Assembly: GCA_038046625.1 (NCBI GenBank)
Contig: JBBSVV010000005.1
Span: forward strand, 7,103-50,185
Direction: 5' to 3'
DNA from: an archaeon
GTDB taxonomy: Archaea > Iainarchaeota > Iainarchaeia > Iainarchaeales > Iainarchaeaceae
Length of the DNA stretch: 43,083 bases
The notes under the pieces were generated by a model. The model was not told where the DNA came from, did no database searches, and saw only the letters and a list, made by a program, of their open reading frames with translations. The position numbers and the translations under genes are program-made. Of this stretch, positions 2,841 to 42,908 are shown piece by piece; positions within the stretch are counted from its first letter, which is position 1; the number at the start of each line of letters is the position of its first letter.

Positions 2841-4244
2841 ATGCCGGAAAACCTCTTCAACAAAGTTTGGCAATTACACGAAGTGCAGAAGCTCCCTTCT
2901 GGAGAATCGCAGTTATTCATAGGCCTGCATTTGATTCATGAGGTAACTTCTCCGCAGGCCTTTCAGATGCTCCGGGAACAAAACTTGAAAGTCGCTTTTC
3001 CCGAGCGCACAATAGCCACGGTCGACCACATTGTTCCGACGGCTTCACAAAAAAGGCCTTACTCAGATTCAATGGCCGAAGCAATGATGGGCGAAATAGA
3101 AAAAAACGCGAAACAATTTGGCGTAAGGTTTTACGGAGTTGATTCAGGAAAGCAGGGCATAGTGCATGTGATAGGCCCCGAGCTCGGGCTTACACAGCCA
3201 GGGATGACAATTGCCTGCGGCGACTCGCATACAAGTACGCACGGCGCTTTCGGTGCAATAGCATTCGGCATAGGAACCACGCAGGTCAGGGATGTTCTCG
3301 CGAGCCAATGCATCTCTCTTGCAAAACCCAAAGTCAGGAAAATAGGTGTTTCAGGAAAGCCTGGCAAAGGAGTTTACTCGAAAGACGTGATACTCAAAAT
3401 AATCCAGCAGCTTGGAGTCAAAGGCGGAATAGGCTACTCTTATGAGTATGCCGGCGAAACATTTGAGAACATGAGCATGGAAGAAAGGATGAGCGTCTGC
3501 AACATGAGCATCGAAGGCGGCGCACGCGCGGGATATGTAAACCCTGACAGAACAACTTTTGATTACATGAAAGGAAGGGAGTTTGCTCCAAAAGGGGATG
3601 CATTCGACAGGGCTGTTGAATGGTGGAAGCAAATAGCCTCCGACAAGAATGCAAAGTATGATGATGTTTTCAAATTAAATGTTTCATCGCTCGAGCCAAT
3701 GGTTACATGGGGAATAAATCCCGGGCAGGCCCTCGGGGTAACAGAAAACATTCCAATGCTGAGCGAAGTTCCGGAAAACGAAAGGCAAACAACACAGGAA
3801 GCCCTCACTCATATGGGTTTCAAGGAAGGCGCGCCGATCGAAGGAACAAAAATCGATGTCGCTTTCATAGGCTCCTGCACAAATTCAAGGATTTCCGATT
3901 TGAGGGAGGCAGCAAAAATTGTGGAGGGCCGGAAAGTGAATGCGAACGTGAAGGCGCTCGTTGTTCCGGGTTCGCAACAAGTGAAGGTTCAGGCGGAAAA
4001 GGAAGGCCTCGACAAAATATTTTTGAAAGCGGGCTTTGAGTGGAGGCACGCGGGCTGTTCAATGTGCTTAGCAATGAATCCCGACAAATTGCAGGGGCGG
4101 GAAATTTCGGCTTCATCCTCTAACAGGAATTTCATCGGGCGCCAAGGCTCTTCGACAGGAAGAACGCTCTTAATGAGTCCCGCAATGGTTGCCGCCGCCG
4201 CAATAAATGGGAAAGTTGTTGATGTGCGCGAGGTGCTGCAATGA
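2841..4244 (+). CDS. leuC: 3-isopropylmalate dehydratase large subunit (long, bacterial-type)
   Basis: 467 aa with aconitase-family motifs ([41 protein letters not shown]), followed by leuD. Confidence 0.95.
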
Positions 4245-4335
4245 TTACAGCAAAAGCGAGCGTAGCGAGCCAAAGCTATGCGAAGCATAGGTTGTCGTAC
4301 CCAACAGCCGAAACTGTTGTGCGCGAGGTTTTACA
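4245..4335 (+). repeat. stop/start-bridging intercistronic element, copy A (leuC|leuD)
   Basis: 91-nt insert between genes that would otherwise overlap by ATGA. Hairpins CTATGC-GAA-GCATAG (4276-4290) and CAACAG-CCGAAA-CTGTTG (4302-4319). 26 nt are identical to copy C. The 32-codon mini-ORF 4241-4339 is locked between two ATGA overlaps. Confidence 0.8.
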
Positions 4336-4941
4336 ATGACTGTAATAAATCAAGTTGCAGGCAAGGGTCTCCCGTTGCGCGGAAACGACATTGACACCGA
4401 CAGGATAATTCCCGCACGTTATTTGAAAACAATCACATTTGAAGGTCTCGGAAAATACGCTTTCTATGATGAGCGCTTTGACTCATCCGGAAAACCTAAA
4501 AAGCACGCTTTCAATGACTCGAAATACAAAGGTGCCTCAATCCTCATAGTGAACAAGAACTTCGGCTGCGGCTCCTCGCGCGAACATGCGCCGCAGGCGT
4601 TAATGAAGTTCGGCATAAAAGCCATTGTAGGCGAAAGCTTTGCGGAAATATTTGCGGGCAACTGCCAGTTGCTCGGAATACCAACAGTAACCGCGAGCGC
4701 GGAGGATGTGAAACTCCTGCAGGGCTTTATCGAGAATGATGATTCCAATGAAATCCTCAACCTGAATCTCGAACAAAAAATTCTTTCCTTTAACGATTCT
4801 TCTATTCCAATAGACATTTCCGAAGGAAAAAGAAAAACGCTCGTGAGCGGAACATGGAATACCCTCGGAATGCTTGTAGAGGCACTGCCGAAAACGAAAG
4901 AAACGGCAAAAAAAATCCCTTACCTAAACGGATTCAAATAG
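4336..4941 (+). CDS. leuD: 3-isopropylmalate dehydratase small subunit
   Basis: 201 aa with aconitase swivel-domain motifs (NFGCGSSREHAP) directly after leuC. Confidence 0.95.
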   Translation: MTVINQVAGKGLPLRGNDIDTDRIIPARYLKTITFEGLGKYAFYDERFDSSGKPKKHAFNDSKYKGASILIVNKNFGCGSSREHAPQALMKFGIKAIVGESFAEIFAGNCQLLGIPTVTASAEDVKLLQGFIENDDSNEILNLNLEQKILSFNDSSIPIDISEGKRKTLVSGTWNTLGMLVEALPKTKETAKKIPYLNGFK

Positions 4942-19410: not shown

Positions 19411-19922
19411 GCAAAACCCTCTTTTTCAAGCGCCCTCAGCACCTGTGAAACCGATTCCGCAACCGAAGCGTTTCCCGTGTCAAAAACCAAGTCTGCGGCT
19501 TCCTCATAAAATTTTTTCCTTTGCTCCAGCAAATGTCTTACCTCTTCAAATTGCCCCTTTTCCGTCAATGCAGGCCTGTTGGAATCTCTCCCAATGCGCG
19601 AATAAATCTTTTCAGCGGAAGCCGTCAGTAATACTATTTTTGAATTCTTTTTAAGGCTATCAATGTTCTCCCTGAACAGCACAACACCTCCTCCGCACGC
19701 GATGCACTGGTTATCCCTGGTAGAAACCTCCTTTACTACCATTTTCTCAATCTCCCTGAATTTCTCTTCTCCAGAGGCCTCAAAAATTTTCGGAATGCTC
19801 TTTCCAGCCTTTTCCGCTATGAGCTCATCAGTGTCCACAAAACGCAGTTTGAGCCTTTTAGCCAGCGCCCTTGCCAAGGTGGTTTTTCCAGTGCCCCTAA
19901 AGCCAATAAATGCAATGTTCAT
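19407..19922 (-). CDS. aroK: shikimate kinase, AroK (P-loop, bacterial) type
   Basis: 171 aa with Walker A GFRGTGKTT, DTD and ACGGGVV motifs. ATGA overlaps at both ends. Confidence 0.9.
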   Translation of the reverse strand: MNIAFIGFRGTGKTTLARALAKRLKLRFVDTDELIAEKAGKSIPKIFEASGEEKFREIEKMVVKEVSTRDNQCIACGGGVVLFRENIDSLKKNSKIVLLTASAEKIYSRIGRDSNRPALTEKGQFEEVRHLLEQRKKFYEEAADLVFDTGNASVAESVSQVLRALEKEGFA

Positions 19923-21184
19923 TCTTTCCCCTCATAAGCATTTTCGAGTTCCCCGAAAAAATTTGGAAAACTCTTTGAAACAACTTTTTCATCATCAATA
20001 ATCATTCCGCCGGTTTTCAGGCCCAGAACCGAGAATGCCATTGCAATCCTGTGGTCATTAAAAGAATTAATCGCTGTGCCATGCGGTTTTCCGCCGTCAA
20101 TTTCGAGAAAATCCGCGCCATACCTGCACTTCACTCCGCATTTCTCCAGATTTTTCGCCACGCTCTCGATGCGGTTGCTCTCCTTTGCCGCGAGATGAGA
20201 AATTCCCGTTATTTTGGTTTTGCCTTTTGCAACAGCCGCGACAACAGCAATGCTTGGAACAATGTCAGGGCAATCGGCCATGTCAACGCCTATCCCTTTC
20301 ATCGGCTTTCCCTTCACTTCAATAAAATCCTTTCCTTTCTTCAGGGAGCAACCCATTTTCGAAACCAAATCCAAAAACTTTTTGTCCCCCTGGCTCGAGT
20401 AAGGATTCAAGTTATTCACCTTGGCCTTTCCTCCTGTTATTGCTGCGGCCGCAAAAAAATACGAAGCCGAACTGTAATCCCCCTCAATCTCATAATCCTG
20501 TGCCTTGTACATTTCCTTTCCCTTCACAAAAAACTCCGTGTAATCATGGTTCACGCATAAAACACCGAAAGATTTCATGCAGTCAATGGTGATGTCCACA
20601 TAAGGCCCCGATTTCAATTCCCCTGAAACCTTTGCAAGCACGCCCTTTTCCGTGTAAGGCGCCGAAACCAGGATTGCGCTCAAAAACTGCGAACTTTCAG
20701 ATCCCTCAACAATCGTTTTTCCCCCTTCAAGGCCTCCGCCCTTTACCTTTACAGGAAAAGAGCCGTTCTCCGAAGCGGAAGCCTCAGCACCGAGCTTTTC
20801 CAAAGCAGAAACAAGTCCCGAAACAGGCCTCTCCTTGAGCCTCGCATCACCCGTAATCACTGAATTTCCGTTTGCGAGCGCAGCCAAGGGAACGAGAAAG
20901 CGCGCAGTTACCCCTGAATTGCCGACAAAAACCTCTTTGTGCGGAGCAACCAGCTTTCCTGCGGTGCCATGAACTATGAAATCCTTTCCATCAAAATCAA
21001 TGCGTGCGCCGAACAAAGCAAGTGCATTCGCCGCGTGCCTCTGGTCATCCGCATAAAGCGCATTCCGCAAAAAACTTTTTCCATCCGCAAGCGAAGCAAT
21101 GAAAAGAGCCCTCAATGTATGGGCCTTCGATGGAGGCGCATTGAAAACGGCATTCAGCTTTTTCACTGCATCTATTTTCCTCAT
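19919..21184 (-). CDS. aroA: 3-phosphoshikimate 1-carboxyvinyltransferase (EPSP synthase)
   Basis: 421 aa with PPSKAHTLRAL, KESNRI and DHRIAMAF motifs. Confidence 0.95.
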   Translation of the reverse strand: MRKIDAVKKLNAVFNAPPSKAHTLRALFIASLADGKSFLRNALYADDQRHAANALALFGARIDFDGKDFIVHGTAGKLVAPHKEVFVGNSGVTARFLVPLAALANGNSVITGDARLKERPVSGLVSALEKLGAEASASENGSFPVKVKGGGLEGGKTIVEGSESSQFLSAILVSAPYTEKGVLAKVSGELKSGPYVDITIDCMKSFGVLCVNHDYTEFFVKGKEMYKAQDYEIEGDYSSASYFFAAAAITGGKAKVNNLNPYSSQGDKKFLDLVSKMGCSLKKGKDFIEVKGKPMKGIGVDMADCPDIVPSIAVVAAVAKGKTKITGISHLAAKESNRIESVAKNLEKCGVKCRYGADFLEIDGGKPHGTAINSFNDHRIAMAFSVLGLKTGGMIIDDEKVVSKSFPNFFGELENAYEGKE

Positions 21185-21275
21185 TTTCTCACCTCACCGT
21201 TTTCCCTCTTCGAGGACTTCGCGACCGGCGGTACCGACAGCATACCCTTCGGGTACACTTGGCTTCGCACTGCAA
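21185..21275 (-). repeat. stop/start-bridging intercistronic element, copy B (trpA|aroA)
   Basis: 91 nt. Hairpin GTACCC-GAA-GGGTAT (21242-21256) and CCTC-GAA-GAGG (21205-21215). The 32-codon mini-ORF 21181-21279 is bounded by ATGA overlaps, and the 3' end repeats the trpA 3' end (GGTGA..AAATGA). Confidence 0.75.
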
Positions 21276-22091
21276 TCATTTCATCACCGTTGCAGCCTTG
21301 AGTTTCGCGCAAAAATCCTTCAATTCCAAAATCATTGCGCCTTCATTCCCAAGGTTCCTCTCAATCACCGCCTCAATTGCGGAACCCACAATGGCGCCGT
21401 CGGCCCCCGCAGAAATTATTTTCTTCACGTGCTCAGGCATTGAAATCCCGAAGCCGATGCATGCGGGCAACTTTGAATTTTTTTTCACGCGCCCCGCGAG
21501 TTCCAATGCAGAATCCTTTATGTCCTTCCTTTCCCCTGTAACCCCGAGCAGGCCAACCACATACATGAAACCGCCCGCTTTTTTCGAAATTTCCCTTATC
21601 CTCTTGTCGCTTGTCGTGGGGGCAACCATAAAAATCATTTTCAAGCCAATCTCCGTGGCCTCTTTCAATGCTTCGCGTGATTCCTCGATAGGCATGTCAG
21701 CAATGAGAATCCCGTCAACGCCGGCTTCCTTCGCCTTAACCAAAAAATCCTTTACGCCATTCGAGTAGACAAGATTGTAATACAAAAGCAGGCCTATCGG
21801 GATTTCGCTGTTCTTTGCCCTTATGCCTTTTATTATTTCAAAGCACTTGTCCGGGTTGATTCCTGCATCCAATGCGCGCTGGTCCGCAGCCTGGATTCTC
21901 TTTCCATCCGCAATGGGGTCGGAAAAAGGGAAACCGAGCTCGAGAGCATCGGCACTTTCAAGGAGCGTTTCCACGATTTTTTTTGAGGCATTGAAATCAG
22001 GGTCGCCGAGAACCACAAAAGGAATGAATGCGCCTTCATTTTTTCCCCTTAATTTTCCAAACATTTTTCCGTAGCGGTCCATATAATTCAC
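21276..22091 (-). CDS. trpA: tryptophan synthase alpha chain
   Basis: 271 aa with ELGFPFSDPIADG and CIGFGIS motifs. Confidence 0.95.
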   Translation of the reverse strand: MNYMDRYGKMFGKLRGKNEGAFIPFVVLGDPDFNASKKIVETLLESADALELGFPFSDPIADGKRIQAADQRALDAGINPDKCFEIIKGIRAKNSEIPIGLLLYYNLVYSNGVKDFLVKAKEAGVDGILIADMPIEESREALKEATEIGLKMIFMVAPTTSDKRIREISKKAGGFMYVVGLLGVTGERKDIKDSALELAGRVKKNSKLPACIGFGISMPEHVKKIISAGADGAIVGSAIEAVIERNLGNEGAMILELKDFCAKLKAATVMK

Positions 22092-26383: not shown

Positions 26384-27985
26384 TCATTCCAAACCCTCCG
26401 CGATTTCAATTGCCCTCAATGCCGCTTTCGCCTTTTTCTCGGTTTCCTCGAACTCCTTCTCAGGAACCGAATCGAACACAATGCCGGCTCCGGCTCTCAC
26501 ATAAGCCCTTCCTTTCTGCAGGGACATGCTCCTTATGACAATTGCGGAATCAAAGTCGCCTGAAGGCGTCAAGTAGCCTATGCTTCCTCCGTAAAACCCG
26601 CGCCTGGTCTTTTCATGCAGGCGTATCAGCTTCATTGCCTCTACCTTCGGCGCCCCAGTTAAGGTCCCCATGTTCATGGATGCGAGGTAAGCGTGCAGCG
26701 CATCCAAGTCGCTTTTCAGAATTCCTGAAACATTGCTCATGAGGTGCTGGACATGAGAGTACTTCTCAATCATGTAAGGCCTGTCACAATGCCTGGTTCC
26801 CGGTTCGCACACGCGCGCAACGTCATTGCGCGCCAAATCAATGAGCATCGTGTGCTCCGCCATTTCCTTCTCATCATTCTTCAATTCCGCTTCATAGCGT
26901 GAATCCAAATCCAAATCTATTTTCCCGTTTATTATGCCTCTCGGTTTTGTTCCCGCAATCGGCCGTATCTCAACTTTTTTCCTTTCGTCCCCTTCCACTT
27001 TGAGGAAGGTTTCGGGGCTGCTCCCCAAAAGTATTCCGGAACTGTTGTTGAAGTAGAACATGTAAGGGCTCGGGTTTAATTCGCGCAGGGCATTGTAAAT
27101 GTCCAGCGGTTCCGCCGAGTATGCCGCAATCATTGTCCTTGAAGGCACAACCTGGAAAACATCGCCAATGAGAACGTGCTTCTTGAGCCTCTCAACCATC
27201 GCGACAAACTCCTTCTTTGGTGTGTCGCTCGAAATCGATATTTTCTTTTTTTTATGGGGCTTCGGCTTCGGGGCAGTGGCGTCCAGCATTTTCCTGTATC
27301 CGTCAATTACTTCTGTGCACCTTTTTTCCTCGCTTTCCATGTCTTTTTCCGAAAAAATCAGCGCGTTGCACACAAAGCTTATTTCGTTTTTTTTGTGTTC
27401 GACAATGAAAAGGTTGTCGTAAAAATTCATTTCATAATCGGGCTCCTTCAGGACATCCTTCCTGTTCTTCGGGAGCTCCTCGAAATTGTCTATGAAATCA
27501 TACCCGATTGCGCCGATCAGGCCGCCGTACATGACAAAGGGCTTGTATGCGGGCTTCAGCCTGAATGCTATTGCGCGAAGCACATCCGCATGCGTTTTTC
27601 TCTTCAGCCTTTCCGATTCGCTCACCGTGCCCTTGTCAATTTTTATGCTTCCGGAAATTTTGTCCGCAGTGATTTTCAATCCGGAGCAGAAATCAAGGGA
27701 ATGGGCGATTTCTTTGAGGAATTTCCCGCCGGTTTCGCTGAGCGCAATCACCTCGAACCTTTCTCCTTTTCCGCGCGCCTTGAGGCAGGGCTCCGCGCTC
27801 CCGATGCTCTTTTCACCGTACTTTGTAACCACGTCGGCGCTTTCAAGCAAAACACAGTTCTTTTTTCTGCCGTAATCCGAGATTTTCGCGAAGAAATCGC
27901 AGGCGTTTCCGCTGAAAGGCATTGTTTCGTACAGCGGGACAATGCTTCCCGGCCTTGACTTCAATAGTTCTTCCGTGCCTTTCAT
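26384..27985 (-). CDS. trpE: anthranilate synthase component I
   Basis: About 533 aa from the ATG at 27985 (MKGTEELLK), with a C-terminal chorismate-binding domain (GAGIVFDSVPEKEFEETE). The track ORF extension to 28099 reads into the tRNA gene. Confidence 0.9.
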   Translation of the reverse strand: MKGTEELLKSRPGSIVPLYETMPFSGNACDFFAKISDYGRKKNCVLLESADVVTKYGEKSIGSAEPCLKARGKGERFEVIALSETGGKFLKEIAHSLDFCSGLKITADKISGSIKIDKGTVSESERLKRKTHADVLRAIAFRLKPAYKPFVMYGGLIGAIGYDFIDNFEELPKNRKDVLKEPDYEMNFYDNLFIVEHKKNEISFVCNALIFSEKDMESEEKRCTEVIDGYRKMLDATAPKPKPHKKKKISISSDTPKKEFVAMVERLKKHVLIGDVFQVVPSRTMIAAYSAEPLDIYNALRELNPSPYMFYFNNSSGILLGSSPETFLKVEGDERKKVEIRPIAGTKPRGIINGKIDLDLDSRYEAELKNDEKEMAEHTMLIDLARNDVARVCEPGTRHCDRPYMIEKYSHVQHLMSNVSGILKSDLDALHAYLASMNMGTLTGAPKVEAMKLIRLHEKTRRGFYGGSIGYLTPSGDFDSAIVIRSMSLQKGRAYVRAGAGIVFDSVPEKEFEETEKKAKAALRAIEIAEGLE

Positions 27986-28038
27986 AAAAACCACAAAACC
28001 GCGCTTCGGCGCCTCTTTCTTTTTGGTACAGCTTTTTC

Positions 28039-28058
28039 CTTTCTCTGCAAAGAGAAAG
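28039..28058 (-). promoter_or_regulatory. hairpin in the tRNA-Trp to trpE spacer
   Basis: Minus-strand CTTTCTC-TTTGCA-GAGAAAG has a 7-bp stem flanked by T5 and A5 that can extend it. It lies immediately 3' of the tRNA. Confidence 0.4.
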
Positions 28059-28069
28059 AAAAAGGTGTG

Positions 28070-28142
28070 TGGAGACAGAGGGATTTGAACCCCCATCAAT
28101 CGGTCTGGAGCCGATTACACTACCAGGTTATGCTATGTCTCC
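28070..28142 (-). tRNA. tRNA-Trp (anticodon CCA)
   Basis: Folded by hand. Acceptor GGAGACA/TGTCTCC, anticodon stem ATCGG/CCGAT with loop CTCCAGA, T-arm GGGGG-TTCAAAT-CCCTC, discriminator A73, no encoded CCA. G1-C72 plus A73 is the archaeal/eukaryal Trp identity set. Confidence 0.9.
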
Positions 28143-38994: not shown

Positions 38995-39462
38995 TTAAAT
39001 TACGTTCGTTCCGGAGCGCGACATTTCAACTATCTCAAACCCCTTTGAAACCGCTTCAATGAATTCCTTCATCCTTTCCGGCCTGTCAATGAATTCCACA
39101 ATTGCGCAGCCTTCCCTTGTTTCAAGCGTTTTTGCGCCGAAAGAATCCAGCATCTCTTTGAGGCCTTTCTTTGCCCTTATCTTGAAAAGGGCCTGCTCGC
39201 GCAAAAAAGCATCCTTTGCAGGAAAAACCTCGATTGAAATGACGTTGACCACTTTTCCGAGCTGGCTTTTTGCCTGCTGAACCTCATCCTCATTCCCCTT
39301 AATCATGAGCACAATGGTTGCCTCGTTCCTGTCAAAATGCCTGCCGACACACGCGGATGAAATGTTGTAGCCCTTCCTAGCAAGAAGTGTTGCAATCCTC
39401 GCCATTACGCCTTTCTGGTTTTCCACAAGCATTCTCAGAACATATTTTTCCATGCAAATCAC
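38995..39462 (-). CDS. ilvN: acetolactate synthase small (regulatory) subunit
   Basis: About 155 aa with an ACT domain (LRMLVENQKGVMARIATLLARKGYNISS). GTG at 39462 overlaps the ilvB stop (GTGA); an ATG at 39453 is an alternative. Confidence 0.9.
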   Translation of the reverse strand: MICMEKYVLRMLVENQKGVMARIATLLARKGYNISSACVGRHFDRNEATIVLMIKGNEDEVQQAKSQLGKVVNVISIEVFPAKDAFLREQALFKIRAKKGLKEMLDSFGAKTLETREGCAIVEFIDRPERMKEFIEAVSKGFEIVEMSRSGTNVI

Positions 39463-41147
39463 TTGAAATAATCCTTGCCTATCTTTTCTCCCCTCATTTC
39501 ACTGTTCGAGGCGCCGGCCGGCACAATCGGCAGGACAATCGCATCAGCCTTCACATGCACATTGATTATGGAAGTCTCGTCATTCTTCATCGCTTCCTGC
39601 AGCGCAGGCGCAATCTCCGAGTGCCTTTCAACAGTCAGTCCCTTGAGCGAATACGCCTGCGCGACCTTCTCGAAGTCAGGGATTTTTCCAAGCAAAACCT
39701 GGCTCCTCCTTCCCTCGTAAAACATGTCATTCCACGCGCGCACCATTCCCAGGTAACCGTTGTTCATGATTACATTAATGACTTTGACCTTGTTCACTTT
39801 CGCAGTCGCGAGCTCCTGCATAGTCATTACAAAAGAACCGTCGCCGTCAACATTGAAGACCTCCATGTCAGGGCAGGCAAATTTCGCGCCGATTGCCGCG
39901 GGAAACCCGAAACCCATTGTGCCAAGGCCTCCGGAAGTGATGAATTTTCTCGGCTTCGAGAACTTTATGAAGTGCGCAACATCCATCTGGTGCTCCCCGA
40001 CTCCAGTGGTCACGATCGTGTCATCCGTAAAAACCTTCTGAAGCTCGAACATCAATTTGCGCGGGTCAATGGGATTGGAATCAATGTTAATGTCCTCCGC
40101 ATACTCCTTCCGCATTACCTTCAGTTTTTCGTTCCACGCCTTGTTCTTCCACTGCATTTTCCTCACAATGCGCAGCATTTCCCCGAGAACCTCTTTTGCA
40201 TTCCCGAGTATTCCAAGCTGGGCTTTGCGGTTCTTGTGTATCTCGCTCGGGTCAATCTCAATGTGAATTACTTTTGCCTCCGGCGCAAACCCGCTCAAGT
40301 TTCCTGTTACGCGGTCGTCAAACCTTATTCCAATTGTAAAGAGCACATCACATTTCTGGATGGCATAAACCGCGGGAGGCTGGCCATGCATTCCAGTCAT
40401 GCCGAGCGAGAGAGGATGCCTTTCATCAAAAACCCCCTTGCCAGCTAGGGTGGTTGCAACCATTATATTGCATGTTTCCGCAAGCTCTTTAATCTCGTTG
40501 TGGCAGTTCGCGTGAACCGCGCCCCCTCCTGCAAGAAGCACGGGCCTTTGCGCCTCAAGCAGCATTCTGGACGCTTCCTTGATTGCTTCGGCATCAAAAC
40601 CGTTGATTACCTTATAACCCTTCAGCTTCACTTCTTTTTTTTCAGTAACCTCCTTTTGCTGCACATCCTTAGGCAACTCAATGTAAACCGGGCCCGGCCT
40701 GTTTGTCGAGGCAATGAAATAAGCCGCATCCACAATGCCGTCAATTTCGTTCGGGTCGGTAATCTGGAAATTGTGCTTCGTGATAGGCGTAGTAATTCCC
40801 ATCAAATCCGCTTCCTGGAACGCATCCTTTCCAATGAGGCTTGTGATAACCTGCCCGCCGATTGCAACCATGGGCACGGAATCCATGAACGCGTCCGCAA
40901 TACCCGTAACGAGATTTGTCGCGCCCGGGCCCGAAGTCCCGAGGCAAGTGCCTACCCTTCCCGAGGACTTTGCATAGCCCTCAGCCATGTGCGCGCCCCC
41001 CTGTTCGTGCCTCACGAGGATGTGCCTGAAAGAATTGTCCCTGTAAATTTCGTCATAAAAAGGAATCACGACCCCGCCGGGAATCCCGAACAGGCAGTCA
41101 ACGCCGTTCCTTTTCAGCGCCTCGAGAAAAACCTTTGCGCCCTTCAT
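39459..41147 (-). CDS. ilvB: acetolactate synthase large subunit
   Basis: 562 aa ThDP enzyme with GGLGTMGFGFPAAIGA and GDGSF motifs. Confidence 0.95.
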   Translation of the reverse strand: MKGAKVFLEALKRNGVDCLFGIPGGVVIPFYDEIYRDNSFRHILVRHEQGGAHMAEGYAKSSGRVGTCLGTSGPGATNLVTGIADAFMDSVPMVAIGGQVITSLIGKDAFQEADLMGITTPITKHNFQITDPNEIDGIVDAAYFIASTNRPGPVYIELPKDVQQKEVTEKKEVKLKGYKVINGFDAEAIKEASRMLLEAQRPVLLAGGGAVHANCHNEIKELAETCNIMVATTLAGKGVFDERHPLSLGMTGMHGQPPAVYAIQKCDVLFTIGIRFDDRVTGNLSGFAPEAKVIHIEIDPSEIHKNRKAQLGILGNAKEVLGEMLRIVRKMQWKNKAWNEKLKVMRKEYAEDINIDSNPIDPRKLMFELQKVFTDDTIVTTGVGEHQMDVAHFIKFSKPRKFITSGGLGTMGFGFPAAIGAKFACPDMEVFNVDGDGSFVMTMQELATAKVNKVKVINVIMNNGYLGMVRAWNDMFYEGRRSQVLLGKIPDFEKVAQAYSLKGLTVERHSEIAPALQEAMKNDETSIINVHVKADAIVLPIVPAGASNSEMRGEKIGKDYFK

Positions 41148-41226
41148 TCTACCGCCTCAACAGTTTCGGCTGTTGGGTACGACGGCGTACCCTTCGGGTA
41201 CACCTGACCTAACTTGCCTGCAAATC
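41148..41226 (-). repeat. stop/start-bridging intercistronic element, copy C (leuA|ilvB)
   Basis: 79 nt. Hairpins at 41187-41201 (GTACCC-GAA-GGGTAC in sense) and 41158-41175 (CAACAG-CCGAAA-CTGTTG). 26 nt are identical to copy A. The 28-codon mini-ORF 41144-41230 runs from a TTGA start overlap to an ATGA stop overlap. Confidence 0.8.
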
Positions 41227-42783
41227 TCAATTTATCGCCCTCTTTTCATTATTATGGTTCGCCATAGCCTTGTTAAGGCATTTGATAAGCGCCTGTGCAG
41301 AGGCCATTGCAATGTCCTCCTTCAATGCCTCGGCAGTGAAAGAACTGCCATTCGAATCCGTGATGGTTATTGTGACGTCCGCAAGCGCATCCGTGCCCCC
41401 GGTAATTGCCTTCAAGTTGTAGTCCTTTAACCTGAATTCTTTGCCTACCGCCCTTATTATCGCGTTCGCCATCGCATCAACCGGGCCGACACCCTCTGCC
41501 TTTGCGGCAACTTCCATGCCCTTGACGCTCAGCCTCACGCTTGCAACCGGCTTCACCTTGTTCCCCGTGCTGATTGTTATTTCCTCCAGCTTCACAAGAA
41601 CCTTTTCCGGCGAGAGCCTGTCGGCAATATTGTTCGCAATCGCAATTATGTCCTCCTCGAAAATGATTTTATTTTTGTCCGCGAGCGCCTTCATTTTGTC
41701 CGTGACATCCTGAACCTCCTTATTGCTCATGGAGTAGCCGCGCTTTTTCAGGAAATCCGCAACGGCCGCCTTTCCGGAATGCTTTCCAATCACGAGCTCG
41801 GTTGTTTTGCCAATGGTTAAAGGATTCATAATCTCGTAAACCTCGCGGTTCGCGAGGATTCCATGCTGGTGAATTCCGGCTTCATGCGCGAACGCATTCC
41901 TGCCGACAATGGCCTTGTTCGCCTGCACAACCATTGAAGTGAAGCCCGAAACCATTTTGCTCGTGTTGTAAATTTCATCCAGTTTTATGTTTGTGGTGGC
42001 ATTGAAATAATTCTCGCGCGCATGAAGGTTCATTATGACTTCTTCGAGCGCGGCATTTCCGGCCCTTTCCCCTATTCCGTTAATTGTGCCCTCGACCTGC
42101 GTGGCGCCGTTCTCGATGGCGGCGAGGCTGTTTGCAACGCTCAAACCAAGGTCATCGTGGCAGTGCGTGGAAATGGTTATTGATTCATTGTAATTCGGCG
42201 TGTTCGCAATAATGTCCTTAATCAGCGAACCGAATTCCTTTGGCTGCGTGTAACCGACAGTATCAGGAATGTTCAGAGTGGTTGCACCCGCATCAATTGC
42301 TTTTTCAAGCACATCATACAAAAATTCCTTTTCGCTCCTGCCCGCATCCTCCGGAGAAAATTCTATGTCCTCACAATAATTCTTTGCGTACCTCACCCAC
42401 TTCTCCGCCTCCGCCTTGACTTGAGCGGGTTCCATGTGCAGCTTGTACTTCATGTGTATCGGCGATGTCGCCAAAAAAACGTGGATGCGCGGCTTCTTCG
42501 CGGACTCGATTGCCTTGAAAGCCCTGTCAATGTCCTCCTTCCTGCACCTCGCGAGCGCGCACACAACCGGCTTGGAAAGGGTTTTGGCAATCTCCTTCAC
42601 CGCAATAAAATCATCATCGCTCGCAACCGGAAACCCGGCCTCGATGATGTCCACATTGAGGCGCTCGAGCTGGCGCGCAATCATTATTTTTTCTTTATGA
42701 GTAAGAGTTGCCCCCGGGCTCTGTTCGCCGTCACGAAGGGTCGTGTCGAAAATTTTTATCATTTTCTTTCCGCCTTCAGCCAT
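41227..42783 (-). CDS. leuA: 2-isopropylmalate synthase (long form with C-terminal LeuA regulatory domain)
   Basis: About 518 aa with [11 protein letters not shown] and HCHDDLGL motifs. ATG at 42783 (the track TTG at 42786; an ATG at 42762 is also possible). Confidence 0.95.
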
Positions 42784-42908
42784 CAAAAAAACCTTTTTTT
42801 TCGCGCAATTTTTTTGCCTTTGTTTTCCCGTTTTTTCCCTTTCACTATAACGACTTCTGCCTTTTCTTAAAACCGCGCCCCCAGAATCCGAATTTTTTTA
42901 GGAGTGCT

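Follow-up and report, generated by a model that had tools for sequence, protein, structure and literature searches.

Introduction

The REP units (repetitive extragenic palindromes) and the bacterial interspersed mosaic elements (BIMEs) of bacteria, mobilised by the REP-associated tyrosine transposase (RAYT), an IS200/IS605-like Y1 transposase, are short, GC-rich, extragenic palindromic units present in many copies, often between co-transcribed genes and in composite arrays, with a conserved hairpin structure. The classical MITEs (miniature transposable elements with inverted repeats, such as Correia/NEMIS, RUP, ERIC and the archaeal SM-type) are likewise small, non-coding, non-autonomous, dispersed and flanked by target duplications, and they can be co-transcribed with their neighbours. 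Here we describe a hairpin element that resembles these small repeats and yet shows the defining features of neither. We call it the bridging element. It occurs in three copies (A, B and C) within a 43,083-nucleotide stretch of an archaeon of the Iainarchaeaceae (the window; assembly GCA_038046625.1, contig JBBSVV010000005.1, positions 7,103 to 50,185). Copy C, which separates leuA from ilvB, is in our judgement likely to be a fixed insertion of a small non-autonomous mobile element of the hairpin type, with a duplicated target and a translated relay frame.

REP sequences share a conserved 5' GTAG, leave their target unduplicated and flank an adjoining RAYT gene. The bridging element, in contrast, resides in an archaeal host without an associated gene, has a duplication of 29-32 bp and combines a fixed 3' hairpin with a variable one, its conserved single-stranded motif being NTCGYACC, located 3' of the variable hairpin. 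MITEs share with it the small size, the many dispersed copies and the empty orthologous sites, but they end in inverted repeats and make duplications of 2-10 bp, features handed down by a parent insertion sequence (IS). In the bridging element terminal inverted repeats are lacking, about 30 bp are duplicated, and a search of 590 kb around its copies brought no parent IS to light. It is the lack of inverted repeats, of GTAG and, near the copies, of a RAYT or IS partner, together with the duplication of about 30 bp, that sets it apart from both groups.

The length of the duplication invites other comparisons. Cas1-type integration in CRISPR arrays, with a duplication of the repeat of about 28-37 bp, is one of the few prokaryotic integration events that duplicate some 30 bp; the likeness is in the footprint only, and CRISPR spacers, unlike the bridging element, are not a fixed structured sequence. 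Casposons duplicate 14-15 bp and, like several copies of the bridging element (L006, L061), have tRNA gene 3' ends among their targets, but they are 8-20 kb long, with long terminal inverted repeats, Cas1 and PolB, whereas the bridging element has 55-100 nt and no gene. Unusually long duplications, ranging from 17 bp to hundreds of bp, are also made by the rare IS elements of the IS1630/IS1634 type. These belong to bacteria (Mycoplasma) and are DDE transposons that encode a transposase and have inverted repeats; here too the likeness concerns the footprint only. SINE-like (short interspersed nuclear element) retroposons have a precise 3' end at the duplication, variable 5' ends and duplications of variable length; compared with such target-primed retroposition, the bridging element has a 3' offset of 0-2 nt and varying 5' parts, with a fairly constant duplication of about 30 bp.

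Regarding translation, the Rickettsia palindromic elements (RPEs) and the mitochondrial 'byp' elements are also hairpin-forming selfish insertions tolerated within translated sequence; the bridging element, for its part, is poor in stops in all frames. The RPE joins the host protein and byp is bypassed by the ribosome, whereas the bridging element leaves the host open reading frames (ORFs) intact and has a separate, putative relay frame. Finally, the overlapping ATGA or TGATG gene pairs coupled by termination-reinitiation (Huber et al. 2019, 2023) have the same stop-start overlap geometry as the two ends of the mini-ORF described below (TTGA and ATGA). The known cases are direct gene-gene overlaps; an element-borne bridging ORF that chains two reinitiations was not found in our literature searches.

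The leuA-ilvB junction

The initial annotation of the window, made from the sequence alone, had described the three copies and, in copy C, a TTG-initiated mini-ORF together with two mutually exclusive hairpins. The minus-strand sequence that it quoted for 41230..41144 matches exactly. We have scanned the window with a covariance model of the family, with the filters off, and exactly three copies were found, A with 73 bits and C with 69.8 bits (both in the seed alignment) and B, which was not in the seed, with 22.3 bits (E = 4e-6). The patterns shared among copies also recur, CAGGTGTACCCGAAGGGTAC at 21242-21261(-) and GTACCCAACAGCCGAAACTGTTGAGG at 4297-4322(+), each with 2 mismatches, and two matches for either pattern appeared in 0 of 100 shuffles. 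The likeness between the mini-ORF peptides of different copies had been ascribed to common nucleotides, and these recurring modules, beyond chance, agree with that view.

The order of parts throughout the family is target copy 1, a variable 5' part, a hairpin H1, a linker (consensus NTCG[T/C][A/T]CC), a hairpin H2 and target copy 2. The parts of copy C, with the coordinates of the other two copies, are collected in Table 1. Its 5' part is degenerate, although a stretch within it, TGCAGGCAAG, resembles the family 5' module TGCGAAGC(C)AAG. H2, which defines the 3' end of the element, had gone unrecognised in the initial annotation. The first target copy retains an old Shine-Dalgarno-like GAGGG and a decoy start, TTG, 8 nt downstream of it. 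This TTG (41230-41228) overlaps the leuA stop TGA (41229-41227) and the closing TGA of the mini-ORF (41146-41144) overlaps the ilvB ATG (41147-41145), so that the 28-codon frame described before holds on reading the sequence and its coordinates. No terminator-like site was found in the leuA-ilvB region and the spacer contains no T-run; leuA and ilvB probably remain one transcript.

Table 1. Features of the three bridging element copies in the window (positions are those of the whole stretch; gene domains from Pfam).
Feature	Position	Strand	Description
leuA	41227..42786	-	HMGL-like, HCS_D2 and LeuA_dimer domains
ilvB	39459..41147	-	three thiamine pyrophosphate (TPP)-enzyme domains
leuA-ilvB spacer	41148..41226	-	79 nt; sense strand TTGA-GATTTGCAGGCAAGTTAGGTCAGGTGTACCCGAAGGGTACGCCGTCGTACCCAACAGCCGAAACTGTTGAGGCGGTAGA-ATGA
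Copy C, target copy 1	41227..41242	-	last leuA codons and stop, GAGGGCGATAAATTGA
Copy C, degenerate 5' part	41205..41226	-	GATTTGCAGGCAAGTTAGGTCA; by comparison with other copies
Copy C, hairpin H1	41184..41204	-	GGTGTACCC-GAA-GGGTACGCC; 9 bp, GAA loop
Copy C, linker	41176..41183	-	GTCGTACC
Copy C, hairpin H2	41158..41175	-	CAACAG-CCGAAA-CTGTTG; element ends exactly at the foot of H2
Copy C, target copy 2	41144..41158	-	GAGGCGGTAGAATGA; working Shine-Dalgarno GAGG and ilvB ATG
Copy C, putative relay mini-ORF	41144..41230	-	28 sense codons and stop; leuA stop to ilvB start
Copy A	4225..4339	+	between leuC-like (2841..4244) and leuD-like (4336..4941) genes, large and small subunits of an aconitase-family dehydratase
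Copy A, target copy 1	4225-4244	+
Copy A, element	4245-4319	+
Copy A, target copy 2	4320-4339	+
Copy A, spacer	4245..4335	+
Copy A, putative relay ORF	4241-4339	+	32 aa
Copy B	21181..21279	-	between trpA (21276..22091) and aroA (19919..21184)
Copy B, spacer	21185..21275	-
Copy B, putative relay ORF	21279-21181	-	32 aa

Target duplication and empty sites

In this family the sequence directly before the element is repeated directly after H2. Using unrelated flanks as null, this duplication lies above the 99th percentile in 31 of 77 copies, and in 29 of these 31 the second target copy begins 0-2 nt after H2. Clean duplications measure 29-32 bp; they are perfect in L050 (29 bp) and L096 (32 bp), and those of L056, L001 and L031 have 30, 32 and 29 bp (the L numbers designate individual loci). 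The junction duplication suggested earlier for the window is therefore a property of the family. Terminal inverted repeats were looked for in the eight copies with defined ends, where the 5' end aligned with the reverse-complemented 3' end no better than in shuffles.

The second line of evidence comes from orthologous sites. Related leuA-ilvB junctions are free of the element in five genomes (L011, L012, L013, L014 and L015), in four of which the two genes overlap (ATGA or TAATG); in the fifth there is an element-free spacer of about 50 nt. At the leuC-leuD junction the element is found in four lineages and is absent from eight. L163 is one of the empty cases, and its sequence there (ATTGTTGATGTGAGGGATTATTTATGA) equals the duplication of 27 nt that flanks the element in L030. 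In addition, elements nest: the loop of one can hold another bridging element or a small hairpin element of a second kind. The leuA-ilvB junction was in its ancestral state most likely an overlap of the ATGA type with GAGG ahead of it (...GAGG...NATGA). Copy C is fixed in all five listed contigs that encode an identical LeuA, the spacer having 79 nt in each. Among the DNA contigs compared no empty-site variant of leuA-ilvB was seen, only further element copies. As to close relatives that could date the insertion, no LeuA was closer than 76% identity.

An all-against-all clustering of 876 ORFs from 77 loci (590 kb) gave no recurrent neighbour protein family, only syntenic orthologues, and since no protein family recurs beside the copies the element appears non-autonomous.

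Several observations concern the insertion sites themselves. The target copies of copy A (4225-4244 and 4320-4339) both encode VREVLQ*, with differences that are mostly synonymous in the upstream frame, and the same is the case for L001 and L007 (in L007 TTA and CTC for Leu, TGA and TAA as stops). At one site (L038, L134 and L139) three subfamilies occupy exactly one orthologous nucleotide position in three genomes, a finding that points either to a hot spot for insertion or to gene conversion by which one element replaced another. The second hairpin element is of about 45 nt, cloverleaf-like (CCTTG-hairpin-CGAGGCCTCGTA-hairpin-CAAGG), and sits within the H1 loop of bridging elements (L008 4051-4095; also L056, L155 and L151) as well as in a 123-nt intron of a tRNA-Pro(CGG) gene (L006 3204-3399(-)). 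Arrays of 2-4 bridging units head to tail, without duplication between the units, were found in Iainarchaeum UBA10205 and relatives (L082, L100, L133, L077, L148); their outer flanks repeat TTTTTCAT, for which a target preference, a terminator T-run or a part of a longer composite element are candidates. Lastly, in Candidatus Iainarchaeum andersonii contig_3 (L002, minus strand, oriented 3372-4424) three nested or tandem cores are embedded in frame in the low-complexity C-terminal tail, with repeated SRTQQPNLLSSPKGEDS, of an ORF that we take, by eye from its translation, to be eS19-like.

A phase-biased frame across the junctions

The mini-ORF that runs from the leuA stop to the ilvB start belongs to a recurrent pattern. 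In A, B, C, L001, L007/L031, L008, L030, L039, L046/L047, L137 and L155 a decoy frame runs through the whole element without a stop and closes at the duplicated one, which either overlaps the true start or directly adjoins it. At each end of the mini-ORF a stop overlaps the next start in copies A, B, C, L001, L030, L039 and others. Most of these junctions separate subunits of complexes or lie within ribosomal-protein and RNA-polymerase operons. Of 17 independent junction sites 9 have the complete relay frame, compared with an expectation of about 3 (p about 1e-3) that allows for the scarcity of stops in the elements (65% of frames open over 65 nt).

A way to examine phase separately is to measure the spacing between the homologous stop positions of the two target copies. 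These positions were used because counting from the upstream stop to that of the relay necessarily yields 2 mod 3, given where the ORF starts. The spacing, of 80 to 173 nt, is 2 mod 3 at 12 of the 17 junction sites (binomial p = 0.002). As a control we have taken the non-junction sites, in which the duplication contains no stop codon (n = 15), and there the three classes are uniform (6, 5 and 4), with 4 of the 15 at 2 mod 3 (Fisher p = 0.016 for the comparison). Along these lines, the 45-nt nested insert of L008 in I. andersonii preserves the relay frame, and the paucity of stops in the elements and their preference for the sense orientation, both given below, also favour a relay.

That the frame encodes a functional small protein is the reading to which we give the least credence. 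It would account for the open frame with its Shine-Dalgarno-like GAGGG and for the similar frames in A and B. However, the same core is read in all three sense frames among copies (SYPTAETV, RTQQPKLL and VPNSRNC), so that no peptide is conserved; the likeness among copies is at the level of nucleotides and structure, and the C terminus of the mini-ORF is the duplicated tail of whichever gene lies upstream. From the use of three frames of one core it follows that phase is maintained and the peptide is not.

A role in translational coupling fits this pattern. Overlapping archaeal ATGA pairs are strictly coupled by termination-reinitiation, as has been demonstrated at such overlaps in Haloferax and in Escherichia coli (PMC6728339), and a spacer of about 20 nt nearly abolishes the coupling (PMC10666635). 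An insertion of 80-95 nt would therefore uncouple the two genes unless a bridging frame chains two reinitiations. The mini-ORF probably hands ribosomes from leuA to ilvB as a relay, preserving termination-reinitiation coupling.

Conserved hairpins and the proposed switch

The two hairpins behave very differently at the sequence level. H2 has the family consensus CAAC[A/C]G-NCGAAA-C[T/G]GTTG, while H1 is very diverse, with 49 distinct 7-nt arms in 77 unique copies; its end lies one nucleotide ahead of the linker in 64 of 82 copies. The folding energy of H1 averages -12.6 kcal/mol compared with -6.25 in shuffles (z-score -2.8). In a MAFFT alignment of 30 copies compensatory changes were seen at 9 of 9 H1 pairs, with 89% of cells paired, and H2 had 100% of cells paired with one pair alternating between A-U and C-G; in the same alignment the controls reached only about 30-50% (slid) and 72% (shuffled). 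When 98 distinct copies were aligned by fitting them to the model, the values were 92% for H1 and 98.8% for H2, and a scan allowing all four combinations at the fifth H2 pair found A-T in 52 copies, C-G in 33 and a mismatch in 1. The variable 5' part often carries TGCGAAGC(C)AAG or a small hairpin (GCGARC-GWA-GYGAGC), whose R-Y pair covaries (4 G-C, 4 A-T, 0 mismatched). A possible outer helix P1, between TGCGA of the 5' module and TCGYA of the linker, has 62% of cells paired, without clean covariation. By these alignments H1 and H2 are shown to be architectural modules conserved as structures.

The initial annotation had described a switch-like layout in which the middle arm GGGTAC pairs either with the arm upstream, forming H1, or with a GTACCC downstream; taken as a model, the spacer would be a riboregulator that controls ilvB. 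The downstream partner corresponds to the linker plus C41175 (41180-41175). Each of the two 6-bp pairings is possible on paper in copy C, and in weaker form in copy B. H1 of copy C, however, has -15.5 kcal/mol and a pair probability of about 0.97-0.99, whereas the alternative (GGGTAC-GCCGTC-GTACCC) has -9.9 kcal/mol, 5.6 weaker, with a pair probability of about 0, and the RNA and DNA centroid folds of the copy contain H1 and H2 only. Nor does the family conserve the alternative. Over the 30 aligned copies the pairing of middle arm and linker reaches 40.6%, which equals the shuffle mean (40.6%), without covariation, and in most copies the 3' arm of H1 is not complementary to the linker at all. 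It can be drawn only in B, C and a fourth copy from the same organism (found in DNA contigs, with the same H1 type), because their H1 arm happens to resemble the linker GTCGTACCC. H1 is also transcribed first, leaving no kinetic route to the alternative, and the region has no terminator or anti-terminator partner. The covariation analysis that had been suggested for these hairpins thus supports the upstream one and speaks against the other. The spacer is not an RNA switch: by covariation the switch is refuted and H1 confirmed, and a regulator of this kind is very improbable. Copy B has the 5' module, where it retains GTGCGAAGCCAAG, and an H1 of the type of copy C, with the linker diverged and H2 disrupted.

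Other small structured or mobile sequences were considered and set aside. Independent small RNA (sRNA) genes for the short-form copies, suggested by a TATA-like TTATAA and a T-run after H2, have a spacing to H1 that is not convincing for an archaeal promoter. Excision as an intron is precluded, given that direct repeats cannot form a bulge-helix-bulge motif, and for a diversity-generating retroelement the repeats are too short. Box C/D and H/ACA sRNAs were discarded for lack of C/D boxes and of a pseudouridylation pocket, respectively.

Distribution of the family and a possible host function

The 26-mer core GTCGTACCCAACAGCCGAAACTGTTG was found at 10 loci in a collection of species-representative genomes, all of them archaeal and Iainarchaeum-like, 4 in I. 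andersonii and the rest in related archaeal metagenome-assembled genomes (MAGs). Leaving the loop free, the core pattern matched 21 metagenome loci. A relaxed pattern (free linker, either of two stem pairs) matched more than 108 loci. These yielded 86 copies of the family, the other matches being chance ones in bacteria. The covariance model gave 102 matches in 77 loci (590 kb). In all, there are more than 100 copies, of about 55-100 nt, from Iainarchaeia genomes and groundwater metagenomes. As far as these scans show, the family is confined to the Iainarchaeia/Diapherotrites (DPANN) archaea. The viral contigs had no match to the core pattern and the phage and plasmid collections none to copy C. 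Scanning the window against Rfam 15 at the gathering thresholds returned only a tRNA gene (28070-28142(-), 65 bits). When copies C and A were scanned by E-value nothing but noise came back (E above 1), and literature searches gave no description of such elements.

The elements are found in varied contexts (operon junctions, ORF tails, antisense in tRNA introns, divergent and convergent spacers), and with respect to co-directional flanking genes they are in sense orientation 26 times versus 4. Several copies also lie beside a tRNA gene, at its 3' end, and there the end of the tRNA is duplicated (L006, L061). Near rRNA genes and antisense to the rRNA, copies adjoin the 3' end of the 23S gene (L009, L073), and another is located about 105 nt upstream of a 16S rRNA (L010). 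Running ARAGORN with introns allowed, we have identified in four MAGs (L041, L083, L104, L116) an antisense copy within the canonical intron that tRNA-Cys has at 37/38; in L041 the tRNA-Cys GCA spans 782-934 with an 82-nt intron, and among the four MAGs H1 varies by compensatory changes.

These data bear on a different reading, in which the element is a cis-acting structured RNA kept for a host function, tuning the expression of leuA and ilvB as a binding or processing site or as a stability barrier like the bacterial REP/BIME units. Over the 26 nt of linker and H2 there is no difference between genomes whose LeuA proteins share only 72-76% identity. Orthologous copies keep the core constant while H1 changes by compensation, both at leuC-leuD (the window compared with L030) and in the tRNA-Cys introns, and the bias toward the sense orientation and the proximity to the ends of tRNA and rRNA genes also speak for this reading. 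Yet there is no match to an Rfam family, the contexts are heterogeneous and one site holds different subfamilies (L038, L134, L139). The element is also dispensable, because most orthologous junctions lack it. The deep conservation of linker and H2 may be due to function in situ, to gene conversion or to repeated re-insertion, and the identity of the core can likewise be explained by recent spread or by gene conversion among copies. We consider a host function unlikely as the explanation of copy C, although it is compatible with a mobile origin.

A palindrome from gut Firmicutes (Faecousia/Oscillospiraceae; L067, L084, L087, L091, L126, L144, L154), AATCCCCAACCG-CCGAAA-CGGTTGGGGATT with a 12-bp stem, has 20 nt in common with H2; this is probably a coincidence and the palindrome a separate repeat family. 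As to the window itself, it is rich in genes for amino acid biosynthesis. By the Pfam families of the called genes, ilvN-, ilvC- and leuB-like neighbours accompany leuA-ilvB, the leuC/leuD-like pair and trpA-aroA, and 4-nt ATGA overlaps join most genes. The tRNA gene overlaps the mechanically called start of a 571-aa ORF (26384..28099), whose true start therefore lies further downstream.

A model for insertion into overlapping genes

Our preferred explanation, an insertion bridged by a relay, can be put as follows. By the evidence above, the element inserted at the overlapping leuA-ilvB junction and duplicated the target; the first copy keeps the C terminus and stop of leuA and the second the Shine-Dalgarno and ATG of ilvB. 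The hairpins would be recognised, as single-stranded DNA or as RNA, by the mobilising machinery. The first copy also carries the old Shine-Dalgarno and start, now TTG. Ribosomes finishing leuA may restart at this TTG, read the stop-free 28-codon frame through H1, linker and H2, melting them on the way, terminate at the TGA that overlaps the ilvB ATG and reinitiate there. Such a relay would restore coupling over a 79-nt gap that would otherwise abolish it, and the sequence of the peptide would be irrelevant. It is the 29-32-bp target duplication that would let insertions in overlapped junctions survive. Candidate routes of integration could be a Cas1-like ruler, an RNA-mediated one or a structure-specific single-strand mechanism that recognises H1, linker and H2.

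Several points weigh against this explanation. The likeness that had been noted in copy C itself between GAGGGCGATAAATTGA and GAGG-CGGTAGAATGA is there, with 12 of 15 aligned bases and one gap, but it is not significant alone; its duplication is short, diverged and below the 99th percentile of the null, although the pattern across the family strongly supports it. No transposase, integrase, reverse transcriptase or autonomous partner was found near the copies in the 590 kb of loci, so that mobility rests on the footprints. The deep conservation of linker and H2 could reflect a function in situ and not a mobility signal. DNA palindromes also gain compensatory changes without selection, by template-switch correction of quasi-palindromes. 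Concerning the relay, 5 of the 17 junction sites are out of phase and at 8 of the 17 the frame is not open to the duplicated stop, the classification of the sites having been made in part by hand and after the fact. Because the elements are poor in stop codons on both strands and in all contexts (109 stops versus 207 +/- 11 in shuffles), their open frames are less remarkable than they look, and TTG is a weak start.

With these points in mind, we regard the bridging element as probably a new kind of small archaeal insertion element, whose long duplication and, probably, relay frame permit life inside overlapping junctions. The stronger proposal, a new class of archaeal mobile elements distinguished by duplicating some 30 bp of their target (three helical turns) and by an evolved, translated relay frame under selection for phase, is one that we advance tentatively.

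To the DPANN archaea, which have been little studied, the family adds a structured repeat of which more than 100 copies have been collected. Its 29-32-bp footprint without inverted repeats fits no common transposase family and may for this reason guide the search for an enzyme that is possibly new. In annotation, the elements account for gaps of 80-100 nt and spurious mini-ORFs in Iainarchaeia operons, as well as for elements within tRNA introns and extended ORF tails. If the stronger proposal is true, these elements could colonise the overlapping ribosomal-protein, RNA-polymerase and biosynthetic junctions of streamlined DPANN genomes and leave them unbroken. This offers a testable picture of a selfish insertion into the tightest spots of a compact genome, where the duplication would regenerate stop, Shine-Dalgarno and start.

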